A stretch of 62,781 nt of DNA, the filler included. It is 12 parts of 12 records of this genome, joined end to end, with 100 filler letters (N's around TTAATTAATTAA, not from the genome) between each part and the next. Parts side by side here need not be neighbours in the genome. Positions count along the whole stretch, not along the records: positions 14,531 to 19,595 come from SRR7504441_4754; 11 more parts are not named here. One strand, given 5' to 3'. Below the pieces are notes generated by a model. That model was not told where the DNA came from. It made no database searches and worked only from the letters and a program-made list of their open reading frames with translations. The position numbers and the translations under genes are program-made. This document shows, piece by piece, positions 1 to 19,695 of the stretch; positions within the stretch are counted from its first letter, which is position 1; each line of letters begins with the position of its first letter.

Positions 1-3000
1 AGCTGAGTGCATTCTACGAAGCTTGACCACAGTGTCGATAGCGTCACTCAGCTTGCGCTGCCCAAATGCCAACGAGCCTTCACGCCGGAGAGGGGAATTT
101 TGGACACTGCGGGGCGTAGGCTCAGCCGAAGAGCACGAGCGGCGCGATTCAGGGTCAGGATCGAACGAAGAGCCAAGCAGACAGGTCTCACCGTCCACTA
201 TGATGCTGAGCGCGTCTTGCACCCACAAGAAGGACTGCTGTGGATCAACTCCACGTTCCTCGGCCCTGAACAAATACCTAGGGCCGATCAGCTCAAGTAG
301 CCTACGAAAATGTCACTGGTTCTGAAGGTGCTCATACAGCCCAGCCGGATGAAGGTTATGATCGAGCTGGTCGAACCCCTGCACTAGGTTGATCCGGATC
401 TGGCCTAATCACACCTGACTGTCGATGGCAAACAGCTTGGCTAGCTCGACCTGTCCTAGCTGCTAGCAGTTGCTTATCGCTGGCTGGCCACCTGGGTGAC
501 CAGCTGCTCACAGCCTGCATGTGTCACTAGAAAAAGGGCCAACGCGGGTAGATCATCCCCGCCTAGCGATTTGTTCTCGCCCAACATCGAGTTGATCATA
601 GAGGCCGCTTCTAGGATCGATTCAGCCCACAGCCGCAGCTTCTGAACCGGAGTTGAGCACTGCATGAGGCTCGCGTGCTGGGCTTGAGCGTGTCACCTGG
701 CCCATGGCAAGTACCATGTCGAGAGCAGGCATCATGATCATCACAATCGACTGAAGATCCGTATACCTGCACCTAAGCACTCAAACCCGGCCGGTGCAAC
801 GCTTCACCGGCCAGGAAAGGCTTTCTGCAACGCTCCACCCCAGTGATTGCCAATCTCCTGCCTGGACACTGAAGTCAGGCCCGCTTGGCGCCGTGTGCAC
901 CTGAGGAACGGCCCAGCCGCAAACTCGCGCCACTTGGCGTCATACTGCTGTTGCATGTCGTCCGGTTGGCTGGCCTGTGCCACTGGCTGGCTGGGCAAAC
1001 AGAAGCCATCTGCCTGAATTCGCATGAGCCAGCTGAGTAGAGTGCTGTCCCAACACAGCACCCGTTCCCGTTGCTCCTGCTCCTCCAGATGTAACCGGAC
1101 CGAGCTCCGTCTTCTGTCCTCCTGTCCAGAGCTCCAACCTGCACACAGCCGGCCACACCATATTGCCGGTGCGCTCAAGCAACACCCTGTCGAGATCTTG
1201 CTTGAGGGTTGATTGCAGTTTGTGCACATGTCTGATGATTTCAACTCCCGCAGGTGTGCTCATCGGGAGGAATCCGTCCTGCCCACACACACAATTCTGT
1301 GCTACGACGGATTGATGGGTATTCCTTTAAATCTAAGGTTGCTGCCACCTGAGTGCCAACATACTGAATCCCGTCAAACCCTGTCCCCAGCGTTAGCTGA
1401 GCCCAGCTGGTCCAGCTGGTCACCGGTGAGCATCGTACCCCAGATCCGTGTCCCACCAGGCGGGCCGAACTTATCGCGCGAACGATCATCAAATCTGCGC
1501 CCGCCCTTGGCTGGACTCCACAGCCAGCAGCACCGCATTGTGTTGCGGTAGCCCACACCGTCTGCCCAGACCACATGGAATTCCTCCGCGTGAGGCAGCA
1601 GCCTGTCCACCGGGTCGACCCTCACCGAGTCAAATGGGGCACCGGCTCTGTAGGAATCCAGGGAGTGGGGATGAAAACACTGTGTCCTCAATCAGCTGCC
1701 TCAGCTGGTACAGAACTAGACAGCGGAGCACACGCCATAGCGAGTCACTAAACAACGGCTGCTCATCGCCATTCTGATCGAGAATGCTCGGCGGCTCCAG
1801 AGCCGAGAATAGAGACTGAGAAATCGAGGCACATAACCCAGTCACGGTCTTGGCTAGCGTACAGCTGAGACCCTCCAACTTCTCCTGTTGCAGCAATGTG
1901 GCCAGCTGGGTCTCTATGTACTGGAGCAGGTTGCACCCATTCTGCAACCAGTCTCAGACAGGCGGTCGGGCGGCTCACCCAGCCATGTAGCGGTCCATGC
2001 GAGAGCGGTCCGTTGAAACTCGCTATATACGCCCGTACGCTAGGACGAGCTTCTGACAGCATTCGCGCCAACGGTGAGAAAGACTCCAGCTGTGTCGTTC
2101 CAGGTTCAGACAAAGAGTCAGAGCCAGACGGACCACCTGGCCGTGCTGAAAGTAGATCTCCCGATCGAAAAATTTGCGGATATCTGCCACCTTCTGTCCG
2201 CTCAGTCGCTTGCCCACTTGCAGGCACCTGCTGAGTCTCGCGCAGTTTGTCCAGTAGCGCTGACTCGAGCAGCTGCACAGACCAGTCAATCAATCGCCGT
2301 CCCTGAGCGCACCTGGATCTGTCGATCGTCGGTGGTGCCTGCCCAGCAGAGCATTCGCATTACTGGGACCTGGCCGAGCCACTCATCTGTGCCGCAGCCT
2401 CCCATTTGCCTCGTTATGGTCCAGTGGCCGCGGAATCAGATCAACCACAGACCTGCCCGACATCACCAGCACTCGCCACTGGTTCACCGCTCGCGCTCGG
2501 GATCCCACCAGGCCTTACAGTTGGCGAACGCCGCCAGCGGAATAAACCTATCCATCTTCTCTAAACTGTACTTCCCCTCCACCGCGGTTGTCTTCCGATC
2601 AAACACGCAGAGCAGCGGATGGCGGGCGCCCTGACCGACACAATGACCGGGCACGCCCGCACCGCTCGGTACCTCCGGAGATAGGTGGGCTAGGTCTGAA
2701 CGCTGCTGACAGAGCACAACATAGCGCGGCCTCCAGCGCTTCCAGAAGCTGCAGCCGGGTGAAGCCCGGGTGGCAAAGGGGGCACCCAGTTTCTACCTCC
2801 ATATAACCGGCCCAGAGCACCTCCACGCAGCCCATGAGCGTGCCCAGTCGAATCTGGCCCAGTTGGAGCACGGGCGACGGACGACGCACCTCGCTCACTG
2901 CCCAGTCTGGGGCATGCAGCTGCGTGGCCTGTAAGAAAAAGAGCTGCTGCTGCGTGGCCTGGAAGCTGCCCCGGAAGTACAGCCCCCCCCCACCAGCTCG

Positions 3001-3640: not shown

Positions 3641-3740
3641 NNNNNNNNNNNNNNNNNNNNNNNNNNNNNNNNNNNNNNNNNNNNTTAATTAATTAANNNN
3701 NNNNNNNNNNNNNNNNNNNNNNNNNNNNNNNNNNNNNNNN
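3641..3740. other. Artificial contig spacer (N44-TTAATTAATTAA-N44)
   Basis: Identical 100-nt block with stops in all six frames, repeated 11 times. Confidence 0.98.
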
Positions 3741-7092: not shown

Positions 7093-7192
7093 NNNNNNNN
7101 NNNNNNNNNNNNNNNNNNNNNNNNNNNNNNNNNNNNTTAATTAATTAANNNNNNNNNNNNNNNNNNNNNNNNNNNNNNNNNNNNNNNNNNNN
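7093..7192. other. Artificial contig spacer
   Basis: N44-TTAATTAATTAA-N44. Confidence 0.98.
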
Positions 7193-7232: not shown

Positions 7233-10200
7233 CTAGTCTTCCTCTTCATCGCTCTCCTCCTCGGCCTGCTGGAGCCAAGCCACGAATGGACCCATGGTGA
7301 CCCGAAGCTGAGCCTCCACGCTATTTGCAGAGCACTGTCTTGCGTGCCATGCCAATATGGTATCTTCGTCCACTAGACCATCATCATACAGCACCTGGGC
7401 ACCATACGCTTACGCGGCAGCTTAGCGGCAGCTTGCAAAGAGCACCTTGAGTAGCAACGGAAAACGCTTGATACCTGGCTCGGCGCTTAGCTCTGCGAAT
7501 TCGGCAAGCCCGTCAACCAACTGGTGCTGCGCCGCCTGCTCGAGCTCGCCCAGAACCTGGCTCAGCCCCCCAAGAGCCACAGCATACTGCTCATTATCAC
7601 AACTTGCAAATGATTTGAACAGCTGCTTAGTCACGGTGGGCATGCTTTGCCTCTCGGCGCGCAGCGCTATGAGCGATTGCCACAGCTTGGGTTCCGACTG
7701 AATCTTTTCGATTTGTGTCAACTCAAGTGCATCCCCGCTGGCCTGTCTCTTCTGCAGGTTTTGTATCTGTTTGATCTTCTTGTAGATCTTGGCCTCGTCC
7801 CGATGACGCTGCTGATCCGGCGTGAGTGGTGCCTTTGGCACAGCGTGGTCCGGCTCTTTTACAGGCAGTGGTACTTGAGTGGCTGGCGTTTCAGGCGGAG
7901 GCAGCTCCACCGCCGCCTGCCTGACTGCCTCGCAGCCGCGCTCTACCGAGTGAAACAGCTCGAACCCACCAATCAGCTTGCTCCAAGGTGACACCTGCCC
8001 GCCGGTTCAACTCATTCGGGCAAGCATTACCCCGCCGATACATTCGCGGCTGCCCAGTACGATCAGCTGATGACTGCCCCCCATTCACACCCAAACAAAT
8101 CCGATCAACCCACCGAGCCCGACTGAGCGCCACATTCACGCGGCGGCGATTGGTTACAAACCCGAGAGGTGAACCCTTGCCGCCCTTCTTGGTGCTCACG
8201 CGCACCAGTGAGAGGATCACAAAGTCGCTCTCACGGCCCTGCATCGCATCTACAGAGACACAGGGAGCTCGGCTGTCGACAGGTTGCTGTTCCATCATTG
8301 TCTCGATTGTCGACCTTTGTCCATTGTAAAGCGTGATTACGGTGATCGAACTATCCGGATGCAGCTCATTCAAAATAGCTACCACGGTCACTGCTGCTTG
8401 CGCCTCCGCCATGTTTAGGTAGGAGCTGCCCTGCTTGGACTCTTGGCCAGCAGCATCGATCCACACTAGGGGTAGGCCCTGCGGTCTGGCAGCTACGGTA
8501 CTGGCTGCCGTCTTGAGCTTAGAGTTGTAAAAGGCACGTGAGACAAGTGCACACATCGCTGGATGCATGCGGTACTGTTCCCGAAGCAGGAAGTGCTGGC
8601 AGCACCCTTCAGCTATCAGTCGCTCCATAAGGGAAGTATTATAGCCACTGTTCGCAGCCCCATGCCACCTGCCACCTGCTCAGCTGGATCACTGGTAAAG
8701 CGCACCGAGTGAATGGCTGCAGTTGCAATTGGTCGCCCACGGCAAGAACAGCCTGAGCCCCATGCAGCAGGCAGCCGAGTGCGTCGACCTCAAGCATTGC
8801 AGCCGCCTCGTCCAGTACAACAAACTCGAACAGCGAGCAGCCAGATTCCGACTCCAATTCAGTTGGTTGCTCACCAGCAGCACCTGCCAGCTCGATGCAA
8901 CAGAAGCTGCGGCATGTAGTACCTTCATCGTCTATGGCCCTGCCGACCCGGGTAGCCACATGGACAGCTGCCGCCGTGGTGCAAGCCACCACTCGAGCCC
9001 GCCGCCATATCTTGCTACCTGCACTCCGCCTGGCTGCGAGCCACACACGCTCAGCCGCGTCCTCCTCCTTGTACGCGCGCTGCAGTCTGGACTTTGCCTC
9101 AGCGAGCTCAGCATATGCCTGGCTGCTCTGGCAGTCCGGCGGCTTTGCTAAGTGGGCTTGTCCAGCAGTGATCAGCTCCTTGTATGTTATATCTCCCGAC
9201 GACGCCAACCCAAGCTGCCTCGCCAGTGAGCAACCGAGTAAGCAACGGCTGACCTGTTGCAGCAGCCTGCAGATGCCCGGAGTCTTCGCGGCCTTGCTAT
9301 TTGGCTTATTGGTCTGCAATTTCTCAAGCTGTCGTGAGATGAATTTTCGGTTATCCTCTAAAACAGCATTATTCTTGGCCTGTCCAGCTGCTGCCTCCTG
9401 CTGCTCCGCCATTAGCTTCTTGAGCTTCTTGCTCACCGCTTTATCTAATTCAGCCGGCTCTGGCTCGCGCTCGAGCTTCTTTAGCAGCTTTTTCCGGCAT
9501 TTGGCCGCCACCTCCTCTTGGTCAATCTGTTCCGGCTCGAATACCTGCTTCTGTTGCAGGCTGGTACTTCTGGTCTTCTTGCTCTTCTTGAAAGCTTTCT
9601 CGGCCTCATCTAGCTGGATTTGTGCCTCGTCACGCTCTGCCCCATCGCTCAGCCGCTGGCCAACCGGACGGAACTACCGTGAGTAGCCCGGTCGGCCGCT
9701 GCGCCGAGCTTCACTATCTCGCTGTCTCGCTCAAGCCGGGAGGAGAGGAGATACCGGCTGGAGGCAGGGCCGAGCCTCTCCCGACTGCCCACTGCGAGCA
9801 TCTCGCTGATACCGGCCCGCTCCAGCTTTGCCACCAAGGAGTCGATCGCCAGATTGGTGCTAGTGCAAACCAGCACCCGTGCGTGACTCGGGACCCGCCT
9901 TAGCAGCACTTGGCAAATGAACTGCGACTTGCCGGTACCGGGCGGGCCTTGCACACAGCACACAGGTCCAGCCAGTCCGTCCAGCGCCTGCTGCTGCGAC
10001 TGGTTCAACTGTACAGTTGCCTGGCTCCGTGCATGTGTGAGCCAAGGGTCCGCCTCTGACTGCTGCTTGCCATGCAGTACTGCGCTGGCGATCGGGCGAG
10101 TTAATTTATCCAGTGAGAACAAGGTGTGCGACCTGTACACGGCCGACAGCACCGAGCACAGCGCTATACAGTGGAAGCTCTCTCCTTGGGCCAGTGAGCT

Positions 10201-10779
10201 GGTCGGAGAGTAACGAGCCAAACTGTCCGCAGGCAGGCCACCTGGCGTCAGCCCGAGCGCATGATAGCCGGACGCAATCCCAGGCGCCATCCCGTAAGCC
10301 AGCCAGAGCATCGGGCGCGTGTCCCGCCCACGGCCACGCGTGACCGGCCCACGGGTCCACAGCAGTTGCCACAGCAGTCGCGGCTCCTCGCCGTCCTCGT
10401 CCGAGGAAATCACTGCACGTGGCTTGTTGGAGCGACTATCGGCACCGCCCGGTGGTGTGATGGTCACCAGGCAGCCCAGACCGTCGCTCGTAGGATCGCG
10501 GAAGGTGAGCACCCACTCGTGTGGCCGGTGCGGTGCCTGCTTGAGTGCCTCGTCGGCCTCCGCATGCAGCTCCGCGCTCACCCCTTCCAGCCACCGGCGA
10601 GCGTACGCCCCAGGACTCTGCCCAGCAGCCGACCAGTCCCGCCGCAGCAGCTGGAGGAGAAGCTGAGCGCGGTCCATCGAGTCGGCGAGCTGGCTAACGG
10701 ACTTTGTCGCCGCTGCCCACTGGCGGACTGCTCCCCCGAGAAGCCCGCTGACAGATCCAGTTCGATGTTCTCCACCCAT
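7233..10779 (-). CDS. Upf1/Sen1-like SF1 helicase fused to a PYM/eIF2A-like hairpin and a C-terminal W2 domain; start uncertain (10677 or upstream)
   Basis: Helicase motifs LNQSQQQA, QGPPGTGKS, STNLAID, LDEAA, GDQLQL, EQYRMHP, VDAMQGRE and NVALSRAR. Introns 8074-8113, 7995-8030 and 7395-7445 keep the frame into KVLYDDGLVDEDTILAW...PFVAWLQQAEEESDEEED*. Confidence 0.85.
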
Positions 10780-10824
10780 CCGCGCCTCGCCTTAGAGTAG
10801 ACCCAGCGCTGCTTGTCCAGCGGC

Positions 10825-10924
10825 NNNNNNNNNNNNNNNNNNNNNNNNNNNNNNNNNNNNNNNNNNNNTTAATTAATTAANNNNNNNNNNNNNNNNNNNN
10901 NNNNNNNNNNNNNNNNNNNNNNNN
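10825..10924. other. Artificial contig spacer
   Basis: N44-TTAATTAATTAA-N44. Confidence 0.98.
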
Positions 10925-12994: not shown

Positions 12995-13087
12995 CGCGCG
13001 CTGAGTTCCGTCAGGGGCGCGCCCTGACGTTGCCTCACCCCGACCGCCCGCCGATTCACCCAAAACGGCCGCGCGGCTGCCGCGGCC

Positions 13088-14209
13088 ATGACAGCTGGGG
13101 GGGCGGTGGAGCCGGATCCGGAGGAGGCGGTGCCTGTGCTCCGCCGTGCGGAGGAGCTGCCACCGCTGCCGCGGCCCAAGTGGGAAGTCATTCGGCAGGA
13201 GACCTTCCAAGGCTGCGCGGTTGTACTCGGGATCGTGGCCGCCTGCCTGCTTGGCGTCCACGGGCTGGCGCTCAGGATCCCCGGGATGTCAGACGAGCTC
13301 CGCTGGGGGTTCGCGGTGGCGATTGACCTGGAGGCGGCCATCGCGGTCGCACTGCTGGCCCGGCTGATGCTGGGTGACCCAGGCGTGATCGAACGCACTC
13401 CTGAGAACACGGCCCCGGTGCCGCCGGCGGTTGCTGACCGTCTGGCCGACCAGATCCCGGTGTCCGACTGGGGCTACATGAGCAACATCACCGACGGCGA
13501 CCGGAGCTACTGCGTCCGTTGCATGGTCTGGCGCGGGCCGGTGGAGCAGGGCTCGTCGGCCTGCTGGACCGCGGCCCATCCGTGCGGGGGCACCATGGGC
13601 ATGCACGCGGGCAGGCCGGCTCGGGCGCACCACTGCAGCACCTGCCAGCGGTGCGTGCGCGACTTTGACCACCACTGCGGTGTGCTGGGCCGGTGCATTG
13701 CCGGTCGCGGTCTCAGTGGGAACTTCTGGGTCTTTGTTTCGCTTATCACGATGGCGCACATCGGGTGGATAACTGCGCTCAGTGCGGTGGTGACCGCGTT
13801 CGCGTATCGGTATGGCGCCCTTCTGGGGTTTGGGATCGTAGGTGGAGCTGCAGCTGTGATGGTGCTCTGCAATTGCGTGGTGTTGTGTGCGATGAGGTCG
13901 ATGCACTGGCTCAACGGCCAAAAGCGGCTTCGAATGAGGGAGGCTGCGCGGCTGAGGATGCACGGCGCTGCAACCGATAGGCGGCCGAGCTACATTGAAG
14001 TGACCGAAGGCGAGGTGGAGGCGTTCAATCTGCGAGGGGACGGCGAGGCTCAGGATGATCTGGAGATAGGAGACGGCTCGTCGGATGATGCCGAGGTAGA
14101 GGCAGCGACGGCGCACACAGAGCCCACATGGCCCGGTGCAAGTGAACTCCATGCAAATCCGGAGAGCGAGCCCATGGTCGATTTGGCCATCGCATCGGAT
14201 GCGCTCTGA
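13088..14209 (+). CDS. DHHC protein S-acyltransferase
   Basis: DPG motif and RAHHCSTCQRCVRDFDHHCGVLGRCI, with four hydrophobic segments. Confidence 0.92.
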   Translation: MTAGGAVEPDPEEAVPVLRRAEELPPLPRPKWEVIRQETFQGCAVVLGIVAACLLGVHGLALRIPGMSDELRWGFAVAIDLEAAIAVALLARLMLGDPGVIERTPENTAPVPPAVADRLADQIPVSDWGYMSNITDGDRSYCVRCMVWRGPVEQGSSACWTAAHPCGGTMGMHAGRPARAHHCSTCQRCVRDFDHHCGVLGRCIAGRGLSGNFWVFVSLITMAHIGWITALSAVVTAFAYRYGALLGFGIVGGAAAVMVLCNCVVLCAMRSMHWLNGQKRLRMREAARLRMHGAATDRRPSYIEVTEGEVEAFNLRGDGEAQDDLEIGDGSSDDAEVEAATAHTEPTWPGASELHANPESEPMVDLAIASDAL

Positions 14210-14430
14210 GTGAGGTACTCTTGTTCGCAAACTGTCTCTTTCAACCTAAACAATGTAGCTTGGTTACCCATTGGATGTTGCGCTGTTCCTCGGCCGTGGA
14301 TTTTCAATTAAATTATTTATGCAAGACGAAAGACTTAGTCTTGTAGACCTGCGTTACTATTAATCCTAGTCTAAACCTCTTGAACAGACGTTCGAACATT
14401 AATCCTAGTACAAGTCATGTACACGTACCC

Positions 14431-14530
14431 NNNNNNNNNNNNNNNNNNNNNNNNNNNNNNNNNNNNNNNNNNNNTTAATTAATTAANNNNNNNNNNNNNN
14501 NNNNNNNNNNNNNNNNNNNNNNNNNNNNNN
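14431..14530. other. Artificial contig spacer
   Basis: N44-TTAATTAATTAA-N44. Confidence 0.98.
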
Positions 14531-14632
14531 CTCTGTGCCTCCTGCTGCTGCCTCTTGTGCTTCCTGCTGAGAGAGTAGGGGTTAGGGATCACGGTTGGGG
14601 TGTTGGGCTGAGCTGTGGTTCTGTGGTTTCAG

Positions 14633-16513
14633 GATCGCATGCCGGATGTGCTCAAGGTCTGGAGGCACAATACACACGTGCTCCAACTCTGGTTGCCAAT
14701 CCGAGTATAAGTATTTCCACCCTTGGTGCGCACTCCAAGTGGGCTGTCGGCCACTGCAACCTTTGGAGGACGCAGATAAGGTCAAGCAATATTGCCCAAT
14801 TTGCTGGGCAAGTGAGAAGCAACGGCATGCCGAGCAGATGGAGCGGCTGGCGGATCAGGCAGATCAATTTCTGACAGACAGCTGTGAGCAGAACAGTTCT
14901 CAGCTCTCGATTGGCAGCCAGAAGCTCTGGGCGAGCCACTCACTTGGGGTGAATCCAAGCGATTGGGGTGAACAATTGCCGGAGTTTGTGCTCTCTGAGC
15001 CGATCAGTTTGAGTCAGATAGCGCATATCGACTTGTGCGCCGGGGGTGCTGCAGGCTTTAGCAGGGCAGCCTCACGGGTTGGCGTGGAAACCAAGTTTTT
15101 TGCGGAGGTTGACGAAGAGTGCCGCGAAGTCTTTCAAGCTAGCTTTGGCGAAGCTAGAGCCCTGGGGGAAGATGCGGCTAGCAGGACTGTGACTGGCGAT
15201 ATCTTCGATATTCACCCCGATGACGATGGGCTAACAGAAGCTCTCCGTCACTCGTTCGGCTTGCTCACATGTGGATTTCCGGTGACTGAAATTAGTTGCA
15301 CATGTCATTGATAGTTGCTTTGCAGTGTCCGGACTTCTCTACAATGGGCATAGGGCAAGGTATAAACAATGTCAAACGAGGACAAGTCGTCTTTCGAGTG
15401 ATAAAATTAATGGACCACTTGAAGGTACCTGTGGCTGTCTTGGAAAATGTTACAGGTGTGCTGGCACTAGAAATGTTGCCTAATGCTTGAGGTTGTAGGT
15501 TTGCTGTACAGAGGTTACAACAAGGAGTCGGGTGACGGTAAAGTCTTGTCCAAGATCGTCGGACGCCTCAAGTCTGCAGGATATTTCAGCGAAGTTGTTT
15601 TGTTGAATTCAATGTGGATAGGTGACTTTTGCTAATTTGCTTGCTCTCATGCGCTTTTAACTTCAGGTGTACCACAAAATCGTCCAAGGGTTTACATTGT
15701 CTGCTTCAGGAGCCAAGAGTTTTGGCAAAAGTTTCGGCAAGAGCTTCGGCCAAATGGATTAATCGGCAGTTCGATGCGCTGCAAAACTGGGCGCAGCTTG
15801 GTCCGGATTCTGGAGGCGCCAGAGGCCATTGGCAAGAGGTATTATATCTCCAAGAAGAGTATGAACGCATGGACACGAGCGGAGTCAGAAGGTACCCACG
15901 CGCCTCATTAAGTGCTTATTGCTTTCAGGCAAGTATTCGCACACTGTCCACAGCCGGGGTAGCCAGCGGCCGGCTGGCTGCCTTCTGCATAGCTATGGAA
16001 GCAGAGGGTTTCAAGGTGCATATGTTTGCGAGGCGCCACAGGAGCGCGAGGAGCGAGGGCTCTTACAGCTTGCGCAATACAGCTCTTACAGCCACCCAGC
16101 AGACGATTCAATGTCATCGGTTCGGGCGCTGATAATTCGTGAGAGCTACAGGTGCTTCCGTAATCCATAAAAGCGCCTTGTGCTCTGAAGCTGCTGCAGG
16201 CTTCAGGGTTTCCGGCCACATGAACACATGGACACACGCGGCATTCTGTGCGACAAGAACTTTGAGTACAAGGCACTCGGGAACGCAGTGACGGTGCCAG
16301 TCGCAGAGGTGACAAGCCCTAACCCTGTAAGCTGAGTGACTAACTGATTGCTAGGTGTTATTGCAAGCTGTTCTAAAGAGTTGTGGTGTGGAGCTTGATA
16401 AAAACCTCAAGACGATGACCGACCTCGAGCAGGTGAGAAATAGTTATCACACACCGATGAAAATGATCCAAAAGGTTACAAAGGGAGATGTGCGATATAC
16501 GACTTTTGGATGA
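14633..16513 (+). CDS. PHD finger plus cytosine-5 DNA methyltransferase, multi-exon; 5' end missing
   Basis: C4HC3 finger (CRMC..CSNSGC..FHPWC..CPIC). C5-MTase motifs in order: I DLCAGGAAG, II AEVD, III GDI, IV GFP|CPDFS (intron 15282-15325), VI LENVTG, VIII VPQNRPRVYIV, IX RESYRLQGF, X YKALGNAVTVPV. Confidence 0.88.
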
Positions 16514-16734
16514 ATATAATAATAGCACGACCATAAATATACTACAAGTAGTTAATTACGCTCTTACAATAGTCTACCTCGTATTGACCACCTCAACTAT
16601 CAAGTACACGTCAAGACTAGTGTTAAACTTGTGTACAAGTACATGTATTCTGCATGCGCATTATGTAAACTACACAATGCCATTACCGGTTACAATCATG
16701 TATGATTAGAATGAAGCGCGCATTTTAACAAAGC

Positions 16735-19562
16735 TCATACACTTTCCATTAGCGCACGACAACGCGCATCACAGTATTCCTGGACAACGAATTCCGCCTT
16801 ATTCTTAAAGCTGCACCGTTCTGGCTTTGGGATGCCACATCGGTCGTAAGTGACTTCCAGCAACTTGGTGAATAACTCTACTCGCTGATCTGAATCATAA
16901 CCCCCTTCACAATTGGCTTGCATTCGCGTGGTCAGCTCGGCATTTATAATTCTGTCCTGAGATAGCGCTTCATTTTCATCCAGCCTCTCTTTCAAGTCAA
17001 CAATGAGCTTTTCGAGCTCCGAAAACTGTTGAAACGCCTGATACACTATCGCTGGCGAGACCTGGCTGCCGCTATCACTGCAGCCCACTTTTGAGCATGT
17101 TAACCAAGCATCGCTAGGTCTGATGCACGACACAAGCCTCAAGTCCCCACCAATCCCGCGAGTTTCTGCTTTGCGCTGCTTCTGTAGATTCTTGTAGCCA
17201 ACGATGATCAGCGCGGTCACTACCTTCACCGCGACTCCAACCAGTACAATCGTAATGAGGAGATGAAATGCGACACCCGCTAGTCCTGCAGATTCCATGG
17301 TGGCTGCCTTCAACTTCTGGGATCTGAACCCTAAGTACCACATCCATTCGAATGCTCGATCATAAGTCCGGAAGGCCTCCACTGAGCGAGCCAGAGACAC
17401 TCTGGCAAACAAAGCGAATCCAGCCATAACAATGATCAGAATGATGAACGAATGTGCAATCTTGCCCATCACATCGACCAAGAAGGTGGTCAAGGTGCCG
17501 AGCAATGGCTGAAAGTGGAGGTGCTGCAAAAGCCGGATGGCGCCAGTGAGATATAAGATGAGCTGGGCCAGATCGATGGTGAACCTGCAGATGGCATGTC
17601 CCGAGCCAGAAAAGGTCTGCAGGTTTGGGTAGACATTGGCATCATAGAGCTGCCATGAGAAGTCAAGGTCTGCTTGAGTAATCGTGTCATCGAAGTTCCA
17701 CGCAGTGTCTAGATTGCGAAGCCAGTCTATTTGCTGGAAATTGCTCCGAATTTGCCCGTCGAGGTTGCTCGATATACACAAAACAATAAAAATAACAATA
17801 AAAGCGCAGTGAAACGCTCCAACAAAGTGCGTCAAAAGTGGGTTCTCATAGACATGTTTGAGCTTGTATGCCTCAGACTCGCGGTCATCCACCACCCCGT
17901 CATTGTTCTTGTCCATCTTCTCCATCATGATATCGTTTGCTACCTTCTTCCATACTCGCGCATGCCTGAGCAGGTAGAGTCTCATCTCAGGGCCTCCAGC
18001 AGGGCAGATCTCATCGTTTTCGAAATTGAGGACAGATGTGTTGCTGATCTTGCGTGGCTGATGCAACAAGGTCTCTGACCAGCTGAACGGAAGAGGCCTG
18101 ACACGCCAAAGGCGGCCACGCCGATAATATAACCGAATCTCCCATACCCATCTCCCAAAGTATAGAATCCACAAGGGTATCAGAAGGCAGAATACAGCAA
18201 TGACGTCACCGGTGAAGGTCAGCCCAGAAAAGAATGCTTGTATTGAGTCGGCGTGTATCCGTTTAGGGCCGCGCGAAGGCCATAAGCTCACCGTGGAAAA
18301 CCGTCCTGCGCCGTGGTCTTCGACATGCAGCGCGACATAGGCGAGATTATTTTGGGAAGGGAAGTAGAGGTAGGTGTCCATCTCGACACTCAAAGTCCTG
18401 TTGGTTACCAATCCGTTGTTTTGCAGCGTCGTAACCAACTGTGTCAAGTTGTTCCTGTAGCGAACACAGATAGGTTTAGAACGTACAATCCAGAAGCAGA
18501 ATAGGACAGAGACACACACCTGGGGAGAGCCGCGCTGAGGAAAACCGAGTAACCATGATGACGCGAGTCCCAGGGCAGTATGAGTCCGTTCTCAAGCACC
18601 ATTGGGGCTGTAGAATCCTCACGGTCTAGATTGTAGCAGGTCTGCACGTGCTCCACTCCCGGATAGTCACAGGCTGCTGGTTGCTTGTTCTGTACCGTAA
18701 TTCTAATACCTCCAATCACAACGCCCGCTGCAAAGCTGTAGCCCCGTCGGATGACGCCACCCGTCGCGTCCTCTTTGGACCATTCTAGATCCATGATCAC
18801 CCCTCTGGAATCTCGGCTGCTGAAGAAAGTGCCAGAGAATAGTTCGGACCTGCACCCAGCAATGAGCCACATTGAAGCCGCAAATACGCACCAGAACGTA
18901 TCGATGCCATAATAAGTAAACTCGACTGGGCTGCAGCATCCAACCGGTCAGCACACCCAATCTAGCACTGGGAACTGACTCGAGGTTGCTAAGTGCCCGT
19001 GTTTGGTCTGCGAGCTGATCCGGGTCCATTACAATGAAGAAAGCTGCCCCGCAGGCTAGCAGCGAGGCCAGGGCAATTGGTACCACACATGAGAGCGTAT
19101 AGTACAGCAAACACCGAGGCGGAGACCAGCCCACGCTTGATGTTGTAATAATGGCGAAGCAATTCAAGAGCGTTCCCTAGGTGGAAGCTCCTGTCTGCTC
19201 TGATGTTCTTCAGGTCTGCTTTGGAAAAGCAGCAGCTACAGCTGGTTTGCCGGTCCTCCAGAGAGCCTCCGTACATCGGATCGAGCCCCCCGTTCATTCG
19301 GCTGCCTGACGGGCCTGGCTCCGGCCTCTCGTCCTCGACCACCACCAGGTCATCGTCGCTACTGTCGGCAACTGCGCACGCACACTCAATACCCTTGACG
19401 CAAAGCCAGCACACAGTATTGCGGTGTCATATCGTCCAGCTTTTGGGCCTTGTCGGAGGAATGGACCGGGTTCAGGTTGAGCTCGAGCTCCGGGTCCAGC
19501 TGCAGGACCACGTCCCCTTTCACCATGACGATCGGCCGGAGCGCACCAGATGCTGTCAGCAT
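16735..19562 (-). CDS. Polycystin-2/TRPP-like cation channel, multi-exon
   Basis: First TM, then a large extracellular TOP-like region (VIGGIRITV; LQNNGLVTNRTLSVEM..LYFP), further TMs (RLLQHLHFQPLLGTL; IIMAGFA; pore FRTYDRAF; S6 LIIVGY) and a C-terminal coiled coil. Confidence 0.7.
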
Positions 19563-19595
19563 GGATCGATCAGTCACTGGCAGGCTGGCGGAGGC

Positions 19596-19695
19596 NNNNN
19601 NNNNNNNNNNNNNNNNNNNNNNNNNNNNNNNNNNNNNNNTTAATTAATTAANNNNNNNNNNNNNNNNNNNNNNNNNNNNNNNNNNNNNNNNNNNN
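19596..19695. other. Artificial contig spacer
   Basis: N44-TTAATTAATTAA-N44. Confidence 0.98.

Follow-up and report, generated by a model that had tools for sequence, protein, structure and literature searches.

The locus described here raises the question of whether a cytosine-5 (C5) methyltransferase of bacterial style has been joined, in a eukaryotic gene, to a chromatin-reading finger, and of where such an enzyme would stand among the known eukaryotic DNA methyltransferases (DNMTs). The gene lies at positions 14633-16513 (+) of a stretch of 62,781 bases, referred to below as the window, in which 12 contigs of 3.4-10.8 kb each are concatenated; its own contig spans positions 14531-19595 (5,065 bp). 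The gene lacks its 5' end; it probably belongs to the nuclear genome of an uncultured marine eukaryote and encodes a chromatin-linked C5 DNA methyltransferase of a small orphan lineage that was previously unannotated. What the data show directly is how the gene is built, which domains it encodes, that the fusion is conserved, how rare the family is and that exon 1 bears signs of coding constraint. A sequence-only reading of this DNA had proposed a PHD reader fused to a prokaryotic-style enzyme; its observations are confirmed, and its interpretation is supported in part.

Gene structure and methyltransferase domain

The gene model, which was built from all stop-to-stop frames of positions 14000-17500, comprises seven exons (Table 1). 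Joined by coordinates, the coding sequence (CDS) counts 1617 nucleotides (nt) and 538 codons and is in frame, its sole stop being the terminal TGA; the frameshift against which the sequence-only reading had cautioned was not found. The host-type introns that it had announced are six in number, all of the spliceosomal GT..AG type (44, 43, 45, 37, 48 and 46 nt), and read-through of each of them gives rise to an in-frame stop. The introns have a G+C content of 45.6%, versus 51.9% for the CDS. Four of the six interrupt conserved motifs (intron 1 in motif IV, 2 in VI, 3 in VIII and 5 in IX). Indeed, intron 1 lies exactly between the CCG (Pro, 15279-81) and the TGT (Cys, 15326-28) of motif IV, as had been noticed beforehand, and its removal reconstitutes the Pro-Cys of this motif.

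The hallmarks of C5 methyltransferases are the Pro-Cys of motif IV, the ENV of motif VI, the QxRxR of motif VIII and the order of motifs I to X. Motifs I, II, III, IV, VI, VIII, IX and X were located in the spliced protein in non-permuted order and with an intact catalytic Pro-Cys, and DLCAGGAAGF, GFPC, ENV (LENV), PQNRPRVYIV, RLQGF and LGNAV were all found, one after the other; GFPC, PQNRPRVYIV and LGNAV are the elements in which a likeness to HhaI/Dcm-type enzymes had been seen. In profile searches, scored on each exon piece separately and not on the whole spliced protein, PF00145 matches three of the seven pieces (exons 1, 2 and 4, with 16.7, 19.2 and 18.4 bits for a cut-off of 22) and the NCBIfam profile dcm (TIGR00675) matches four (exons 1, 2, 4 and 6), each below its cut-off. 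The matches are in order and abut across intron 1 (69/70 in dcm, 70/71 in PF00145). The catalytic domain has about 405 residues and is separated from the finger by a linker of about 75 residues; the variable region between motifs VIII and IX is 133 amino acids (aa) long.

The canonical motif I, FxGxG, serves S-adenosylmethionine binding. Its atypical form in the window gene, which the sequence-only reading had pointed out, is confirmed and is also present in three environmental proteins (P0006, P0003 and P0005) and at a second locus (L001), all described below; since it is common to them, the variant is a family trait and not damage. In two further fragments of the family (P0001 and P0002), the Asp of this motif and its first Gly are each replaced by Cys.

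The exon borders are supported by P0006, an intronless environmental protein of 504 aa which itself matches PF00145 end to end and clearly over the cut-off (E 6.6e-29, 101.8 bits). The spliced window protein aligns to it over residues 109-534 with 29% identity (E 6e-54), without gaps at the junctions and with the C-terminal tail included; the alignment therefore fixes the donor of intron 6 at 16309, and it shows that the last exon reaches the stop. A tblastn search of P0006 against the raw window, which is free of any gene model, returned positions 15018-15281, 15531-15899, 15937-16311 and 16355-16498, in this order. The reading frame stops 54 residues past motif X and is followed by AT-rich sequence and a convergent gene. 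At the other end, exon 1 opens in codon phase 2, directly after an acceptor, with the contig edge 102 nt upstream, so the gene is cut at the contig start. Environmental DNA reads and contigs aligned to this contig showed no joints and no loose ends, and gave neither a 5' extension nor an intron-less DNA form.

Natural variation also bears on the model. A metagenome contig (X1) that is about 95% alike spans the linker and motif I: it has 12 listed differences in exon 1, of which 10 affect the third base of a codon (binomial P 5e-4 for 10 or more) and eight are synonymous. Between 16095 and 16356, seven of the 11 listed differences fall inside introns 5 and 6 (36% of this span), and another contig (X2) has a 1-nt deletion and an 11-nt insertion that are both inside intron 6. 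This pattern fits coding exons separated by unconstrained introns.

Table 1. Features of the methyltransferase gene, of its contig and of the rest of the window
Feature	Position	Strand	Evidence or remarks
Upstream intron, 3' end	14531..14632	+	pyrimidine-rich tract leading to tttcag (14627-14632); acceptor inferred; contig starts here
Exon 1: finger, linker of ~75 aa, motifs I-III and first half of motif IV (GFP)	14633..15281	+	ORF 14586-15311; PF13771; PF00145 3-70; dcm 2-69
Motif I, DLCAGGAAGF	15030..15059	+	Cys for the usual Phe; Gly-rich loop one residue longer
Intron 1, 44 nt, gtgact..ttgcag	15282..15325	+	splits Pro/Cys of motif IV; profile match contiguous across it
Exon 2: catalytic Cys to motif VI (ENV)	15326..15455	+	PF00145 71-111; dcm 70-110; P0006 alignment
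Intron 2, 43 nt, gtgtgc..tgtag	15456..15498	+	splice sites, P0006 alignment
Exon 3: interval between motifs VI and VIII	15499..15621	+	collinear with P0006; no Pfam match by itself
Intron 3, 45 nt, gtgact..cttcag	15622..15666	+	splice sites, P0006 alignment
Exon 4: motif VIII (GVPQNRPRVYIV) and start of variable target-recognition region	15667..15891	+	PF00145 149-209; dcm 148-211
Intron 4, 37 nt, gtaccc..tttcag	15892..15928	+	splice sites, P0006 alignment
Exon 5: remaining variable region and start of motif IX	15929..16151	+	P0006 alignment, motif positions
Intron 5, 48 nt, gtgctt..ctgcag	16152..16199	+	five of the listed differences of the X1 relative are here
Exon 6: motif IX (RLQGF), motif X (LGNAVTVPV)	16200..16308	+	dcm 293-323; P0006 alignment
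Intron 6, 46 nt, gtgaca..gctag	16309..16354	+	gap-free P0006 alignment prefers donor 16309 over 16327
Exon 7: C-terminal tail (KGDV.Y, conserved with P0006) and stop TGA (16511-16513)	16355..16513	+	
Convergent 3' neighbour, ORF of 618 aa	16735-18591, continuing upstream to ~19426	-	polycystin cation channel E 0.11, EF-hand E 1.3 (weak)
DHHC palmitoyltransferase	13028-14209	+	uninterrupted ORF
GH35 beta-galactosidase, 878 aa	21270-23903	+	uninterrupted ORF
PAN2, 1359 aa	53345-57421	-	UCH_1, PAN2_N and RNase_T domains; uninterrupted ORF
Linkers	3641-3740, 7093-7192, 10825-10924, 14431-14530, 19596-19695 and six more		stops in all six frames

The finger and its fusion to the methyltransferase

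A Cys4-His-Cys3 (C4HC3) finger ahead of the methyltransferase had been claimed, and the pattern is found at 14640-14804 (+), two codons into exon 1, with the spacing C-x2-C-x9-C-x4-C-x7-H-x2-C-x21-C-x2-C. The finger and motifs I-IV share one open reading frame (ORF) and one exon. Its best Pfam match is PF13771 (zf-HC5HC2H, PHD-like), with E 8.6e-5 and 23.1 bits, under the gathering score of 29.1 and covering just profile positions 39-89 of 91, the C-terminal half; PF13832 is matched with E 0.025, and the classic PHD profile PF00628 was unmatched in the exon pieces of the window at E<=1 in the Pfam scan. The reader that had been proposed thus stands as a C4HC3 PHD-like finger but not as a classic PHD, and it appears to be better described as PHD-like/ePHD (zf-HC5HC2H). 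It is probably the last finger of a multi-finger module, and further fingers may lie upstream of the contig start.

A second locus carries the same combination. The motif I of the family was back-translated into a degenerate DNA pattern, which has one match in the window and none in 100 shuffles; it gave no match in 2.9 million viral contigs, none in prokaryotic genome contigs and four loci (L001-L004) in metagenome contigs. L001 is a contig of 1630 nt (59% G+C) with one uninterrupted ORF of 454 aa, which leaves the contig at its 3' end. This ORF encodes (i) a canonical PHD finger (PF00628, E 2e-4, 21.8 bits for a cut-off of 24; PHD_2, E 8e-4), (ii) further Cys/His clusters, (iii) a linker similar in length to that of the window protein and (iv) a motif I-II region sharing 51% identity with that of the window protein across 47 residues (E 2e-11). 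The methyltransferase-proximal finger of L001 (its finger 3) aligns with the window finger both in the ligand columns and in the flanking residues. The fusion of finger and methyltransferase is therefore real and recurs in two independent loci, the window and L001, since a single ORF of L001 combines a PHD finger and Cys/His fingers with this form of motif I. Residues 100-330 of L001 also have language-model neighbours in zf-HC5HC2H_2, zf-HC5HC2H, PHD_NSD and PHD_2 clusters (scores 0.84-0.89), which serve as a lead only; together with the fingers they fit a PHD-ePHD (PZP-like) module. An AlphaFold2 model of the L001 ORF from its single sequence was unusable, with a mean predicted local distance difference test (pLDDT) score of 38.1. 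In a tblastn search with the N-terminal region of L001 against the window, missing upstream exons were not found on the other contigs, the best match being the known finger (E 0.085).

PHD/ePHD fingers are present in two of the three members with enough upstream sequence visible. The fusion is not universal in the family, because the N-terminus of P0006 is without a finger, and the fragment relatives are too short upstream of motif I for the presence of a finger to be judged.

Two other matches to the motif-I pattern (L003 and L004) were set aside as chance matches. L002, at 2259-2311 (-) of a 26-kb contig with 38% G+C, belongs to a prokaryote-style C5 methyltransferase in a stop-to-stop ORF of 309 aa. 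It has a motif I that also contains a Cys and is one residue longer (DLCSG..AGF), and is remote from the window protein (26% identity, E 3e-9); it may hint at the group from which the donor came.

Rarity and affinities of the family

Relatives of this gene are few. When 1.84 billion representative proteins were searched by HMMER with exon 1 as the query, six matches came up at E<=0.001, of which five are credible: four fragments of 58-143 aa and P0006. The sixth (P0004), a repeat protein matched over six short stretches, was set aside as spurious. All matches are nameless singletons or members of two-member clusters from environmental assemblies, on contigs of up to 2 kb; only environmental fragments, and no protein of a named DNMT family, were found by this search. 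In three of the fragments (P0001, P0002 and P0005) the sequence becomes unrelated directly after the motif II region (FAEI...), as if the gene calls had run on into introns, at a site that is intron-free in the window gene. Homologue searches found nothing with exon 1 in the longer-protein range, nothing with the L001 ORF and, with P0006, only P0006 itself and a remote protein (P0007, E 4.9e-5). Exon 1 gave 195 pattern matches in metagenome contigs and P0006 gave five in viral contigs, none of them a relative. The family is thus extremely rare and has so far been seen only in environmental DNA.

Structural comparisons were made with P0006 as a proxy. In a phmmer search of the PDB, P0006 matched M.HhaI (6e-13) and M.HaeIII (2e-5), while M.MpeI, a carboxymethyltransferase and DNMT2 appeared only at E 0.25-1.1 (DNMT2 at 0.76-1.1), and no chain of DNMT1, DNMT3, DNMT5, DRM, CMT or DIM-2 was found at E<=10. 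The same search with exons 1 and 2 of the window gave no match, and with exon 4 a non-significant HhaI (E 1.9); the exons of the window are too short to yield significant PDB matches. Crov588, which was matched by exon 4 (E 0.0046), is likely spurious, with no stretch passing. An AlphaFold2 model of P0006, from an alignment of eight rows, has a mean pLDDT of 50.3, with 60-85 in the core and the variable region unmodelled. Foldseek searches with this model returned HhaI and HaeIII at the top (23-30% identity), followed by MET1, DNMT2, DIM2 and DNMT1 (15-21%) with somewhat worse E-values; given the quality of the model, this order agrees with the sequence search but counts as weak support. Neighbours in the ESM-Atlas belong to M.SsoII-like and phage PF00145 clusters.

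Among phage and plasmid sequences, tblastn with P0006 returned 511 and 159 records respectively, all below 60% identity and none covering 80% of the query; the best of them have 33-35% identity over motifs I-VIII (about 1e-12 to 2e-13). In IMG/VR, the best of six confirmed loci has 30% identity over residues 95-283. Judged from its sequence, the catalytic domain is bacterial- or phage-like and nearest to the M.HhaI type. This supports one part of the proposal of a prokaryote- or virus-derived methyltransferase, namely the affinity of the domain; the donor is another matter, and no close one was found among phage, plasmid and viral relatives, the best of which are 22-35% identical and align over the N-terminal half. 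Descent of the domain from a bacterial or phage enzyme is thus putative.

The comparison with named eukaryotic DNMTs was made by sequence and fold searches and not by a tree. As the sequence-only reading had noted for the companion domains of DNMT1, DNMT3 and DNMT5, no CXXC, BAH, PWWP, ADD or SNF2 domain was detected by Pfam in the pieces of the window, whose C-terminus is complete; its N-terminus is cut, so the scan covers the 132 residues before motif I, and domains farther upstream lie outside it. The features of each family were looked for in turn. RFTS, CXXC and BAH, as in DNMT1, MET1 and DIM-2, are found neither in these 132 residues nor in the 454-aa ORF of L001. There is no PWWP or ADD in the window pieces or in L001, and no DNMT3 or DRM chain among the PDB matches. 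A C-terminal SNF2-type ATPase, as in DNMT5, is absent, the tail aligning to the end of P0006. Finally, DNMT2 and DNMT6 differ in that the window enzyme has a finger fused in the same exon, and DNMT2 is far behind HhaI in the PDB search.

The proposal of a candidate new eukaryotic DNMT lineage agrees with the sequence searches, in which no DNMT1, DNMT3 or DNMT5 chain was matched; the category itself is already published. Passages of Sarre et al. 2025 (Mol Biol Evol, PMC12344493) describe lineage-specific orphan DNMTs of foreign origin across eukaryotes, generally without companion domains, some of them borne by transposons or viruses or unexpressed. The claim of novelty therefore extends only to the orphan lineage itself, with its uncommon companion domain, and the sequence data are consistent with orphan DNMT status in the sense of these authors. 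The parts of that article also state that DNMTs acting on DNA or chromatin tend to acquire companion domains and that RNA-acting ones do not. In the portions available of Iyer et al. 2016 (BioEssays, PMC4738411), prokaryote-derived N6-adenine methyltransferases are fused to PHD, PHD-X or PWWP in eukaryotes. Hoguin et al. 2023 (PMC9998398) has PHD among the domain labels of a figure, and the portion of its text consulted does not state which DNMT carries it. No description of a PHD-fused HhaI-like DNMT was found in the literature searched, which covered texts other than the per-species supplementary tables of DNMTs and architectures of Sarre et al. 2025 and Hoguin et al. 2023.

Genomic setting, alternative readings and significance

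The 12 contigs of the window are joined by 11 identical linkers (N44-TTAATTAATTAA-N44); the concatenation is artificial and the adjacency of contigs therefore has no biological meaning. Pieces of the contig at 14531-19595 were found in four marine, seawater or aquatic metagenome DNA runs from four studies, 90-100% alike, each run containing at most 0.18 of the words of the stretch. Because of the nature of these runs the source is taken to be an uncultured aquatic or marine eukaryote, and the contigs most likely form a metagenome-assembled bin. Long eukaryotic ORFs, mostly uninterrupted, are present on the other contigs, for PAN2, a GH35 beta-galactosidase, UCH, DHHC, Kelch and SpoU-type methylase proteins. 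The contig of the methyltransferase gene has a G+C content of 51.2%, the lowest of the 12 (56.7-63.8% in the others). The G+C content at third codon positions (GC3) is 0.56 in the methyltransferase gene and 0.56-0.58 in the two genes of the contig, for 0.59-0.78 in four other ORFs of the window and 0.72-0.78 in the DHHC, PAN2 and GH35 genes. The contig may be a compositional outlier region or may have been mis-binned.

Within these 5,065 bp there is no long terminal repeat (LTR) and no terminal inverted repeat (TIR), and no reverse transcriptase, integrase or viral core gene; the 5' side ends at the contig edge. The sole repeat is a pair of 33 nt in direct orientation with 79% identity, at 15029-15061 (motif I) and 16174-16206 (end of intron 5 and start of exon 6), and is probably due to chance. 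Upstream of the 618-aa ORF of the convergent neighbour, more minus-strand ORFs in shifted frames suggest additional short introns. Elsewhere in the window, at 7891-10791 (-), three ORFs follow one another in changing frames, with overlaps of about 25-40 nt; the 5'-most carries an AAA_11 helicase domain, and both junctions show GT..AG stretches of about 30-41 nt (by inspection only). These junctions in a high-GC helicase-like gene suggest, again by inspection, that very short introns are a genome-wide trait of the bin. For this reason a mamiellophyte alga, with the contig coming from an outlier chromosome of low G+C, was discarded as the source. An Rfam scan of the window at the gathering cut-off returned no family.

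Several points weigh against the interpretation as a functional chromatin-linked enzyme of the bin's organism. The finger scores below the Pfam gathering threshold, and seven residues separate its fourth Cys from the His, more than in a classic PHD. No finger is seen in the 95 N-terminal residues of P0006, the one relative available in full length. The atypical motif I (Cys for Phe, longer loop) leaves cofactor binding as a prediction only, and the structural ranking depends on a proxy protein and on a poor model. In exons 5 and 6, the listed differences are mostly non-synonymous (three of four in X1, three of three in X4 and one of one in X2), in a small sample; one of them alters the Arg of the 'RE' of motif IX, an Arg that P0006 also lacks. 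The base composition of the contig makes its assignment to the same organism as the neighbouring contigs uncertain. Finally, no RNA run containing the stretch turned up, which is neutral on expression.

The ADD of DNMT3 contains a PHD-like finger and reads unmodified H3K4, and the gene could be a very divergent member of a defined family (e.g. DNMT3, ChloroDNMT or DNMT6) whose finger is a degenerate ADD/PHD-like counterpart. C5 methyltransferases share one core and their deep branches are poorly resolved, according to passages of Sarre et al. 2025 (PMC12344493), the named DNMTs were compared by searches and not placed in a tree, and the Foldseek E-values of eukaryotic DNMTs are just 1-2 orders of magnitude worse than that of HhaI. 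Such a placement is nevertheless unlikely, in view of the PDB search with P0006, where HhaI stands at 6e-13 and DNMT1, DNMT3, DNMT5, DRM and CMT are missing up to E 10, of the 1.84 billion representatives among which exon 1 met no named DNMT family protein, and of the lack of Pfam matches to ADD, PWWP, BAH, CXXC and SNF2 in the window pieces and in L001. A role in the methylation of tRNA or another RNA, as in DNMT2 or DNMT6, is less probable still. These two enzymes do act on RNA with a fold like that of DNA methyltransferases, DNMT2 chains are among the fold matches, and the substrate of orphan DNMTs is, in the same passages (PMC12344493), hard to predict; but the sequence match to DNMT2 (E 0.76-1.1) is far weaker than that to HhaI (6e-13), and RNA-acting DNMTs are described there as consistently devoid of companion domains, whereas PHD-type fingers are present at two loci of the present family. 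This last difference is what argues for a chromatin role.

A selfish or decaying gene, i.e. a transposon-borne or endogenised-virus methyltransferase or a foreign sequence inserted recently and now silent or inactive, is about as improbable as membership of a defined family. Orphan DNMTs often lie within long interspersed element (LINE) or giant-virus insertions and some are unexpressed, as parts of Sarre et al. 2025 (PMC12344493) report; the contig is lower in G+C and GC3 than the neighbouring contigs, motif I has an unusual form, the listed differences in exons 5 and 6 are mostly non-synonymous, and the 5' flank is beyond the contig. Against this, the gene has six spliceosomal-type introns and an intact frame of 538 codons, the variation of exon 1 is biased to third codon positions, and the 5-kb contig combines a lack of LTR, TIR, reverse transcriptase and integrase with a channel-like host gene as 3' neighbour. 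Furthermore, the motif-I DNA signature is without a match in 2.9 million viral contigs, and the best viral relative has 30% identity over residues 95-283 only.

The preferred reading, that of a host gene for a chromatin-linked C5 DNA methyltransferase, suggests the following mechanism. PHD/ePHD modules elsewhere dock on nucleosomes, the histone H3 tail or DNA. The protein would consist of an N-terminal PHD/ePHD module, of which only the last finger is on the contig, then the linker and the M.HhaI-type domain. Its fingers, whose ligand is predicted from these other modules, would dock on nucleosomes, the H3 tail or DNA and would thereby bring the catalytic domain to particular chromatin. If the enzyme is active and its substrate is DNA, as predicted, the Cys of motif IV would attack C6 of a flipped-out cytosine, and S-adenosylmethionine would give the methyl group to form 5-methylcytosine (5mC).

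The closest known systems show what is shared and what is particular to this family. The M.HhaI-type C5 methyltransferases of bacteria and phages (PF00145, dcm superfamily) have the same non-permuted ten-motif domain with PC, ENV and QxRxR and are the best matches of the family among solved structures; in the annotated collections searched, the best are Firmicute plasmid and phage enzymes. The window gene differs from them in its low identity (22-35%, over motifs I-VIII only, with no record covering at least 80% of the query), in its introns, in its N-terminal PHD-type fingers, in the longer motif-I loop with Cys for Phe, in the 133-aa variable region, in the conserved C-terminal tail and in having no restriction-enzyme partner. 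DNMT3, with its ADD, is built on the same logic as the family would be, an N-terminal histone reader and a C5 domain targeting methylation by chromatin state, as is ChloroDNMT, with its PWWP, in passages of Sarre et al. 2025; the window family lacks ADD and PWWP, no DNMT3 chain is found in the sequence search or among the fold matches listed, and the likeness is thus a functional analogy. The orphans described in that source are likewise lineage-restricted, foreign-looking eukaryotic C5 methyltransferases unlike DNMT1, 2, 3, 5 and 6, and by these descriptions the PHD/ePHD fingers and host-type introns set the window family apart from them. The adenine methyltransferases in the available portions of Iyer et al. 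2016 (PMC4738411) followed the same route, in which an enzyme of restriction-modification type is captured and joined to chromatin readers including PHD, but they belong to other folds and clades, the window enzyme being of the cytosine-5 type. The fingers, finally, recall the PHD-ePHD (PZP-like) modules of BRPF, JADE, AF10, NSD and PHF7-type proteins, the window finger being zf-HC5HC2H and L001 having a PHD followed by Cys/His clusters; their scores are under the curated thresholds, and this likeness comes from sequence alone.

In the current view, DNA methylation in eukaryotes arose several times over by the joining of bacterial methyltransferases to chromatin readers. The well-studied cases are mostly ancient (DNMT1, 3 and 5) and the recent orphan DNMTs are mostly without readers. 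The window family would capture an intermediate stage, with a domain that is still recognisably bacterial, yet intron-bearing, fused to fingers and, in exon 1, under constraint in wild populations. As a tentative extension, which falls somewhat short of an even chance, a lineage of uncultured marine protists may have independently captured, in an event not recognised before, an HhaI-like methyltransferase of restriction-modification type, which then gained spliceosomal introns and a PHD-ePHD (PZP-like) reader; this would amount to a new DNMT family with its own targeting logic, possibly the 5mC writer where the classical enzymes are lacking. If active, the enzyme would be a compact, naturally reader-guided cytosine methyltransferase, and its gene would help to detect, in marine protists not yet cultured, 5mC that present DNMT surveys based on cultured strains would overlook.

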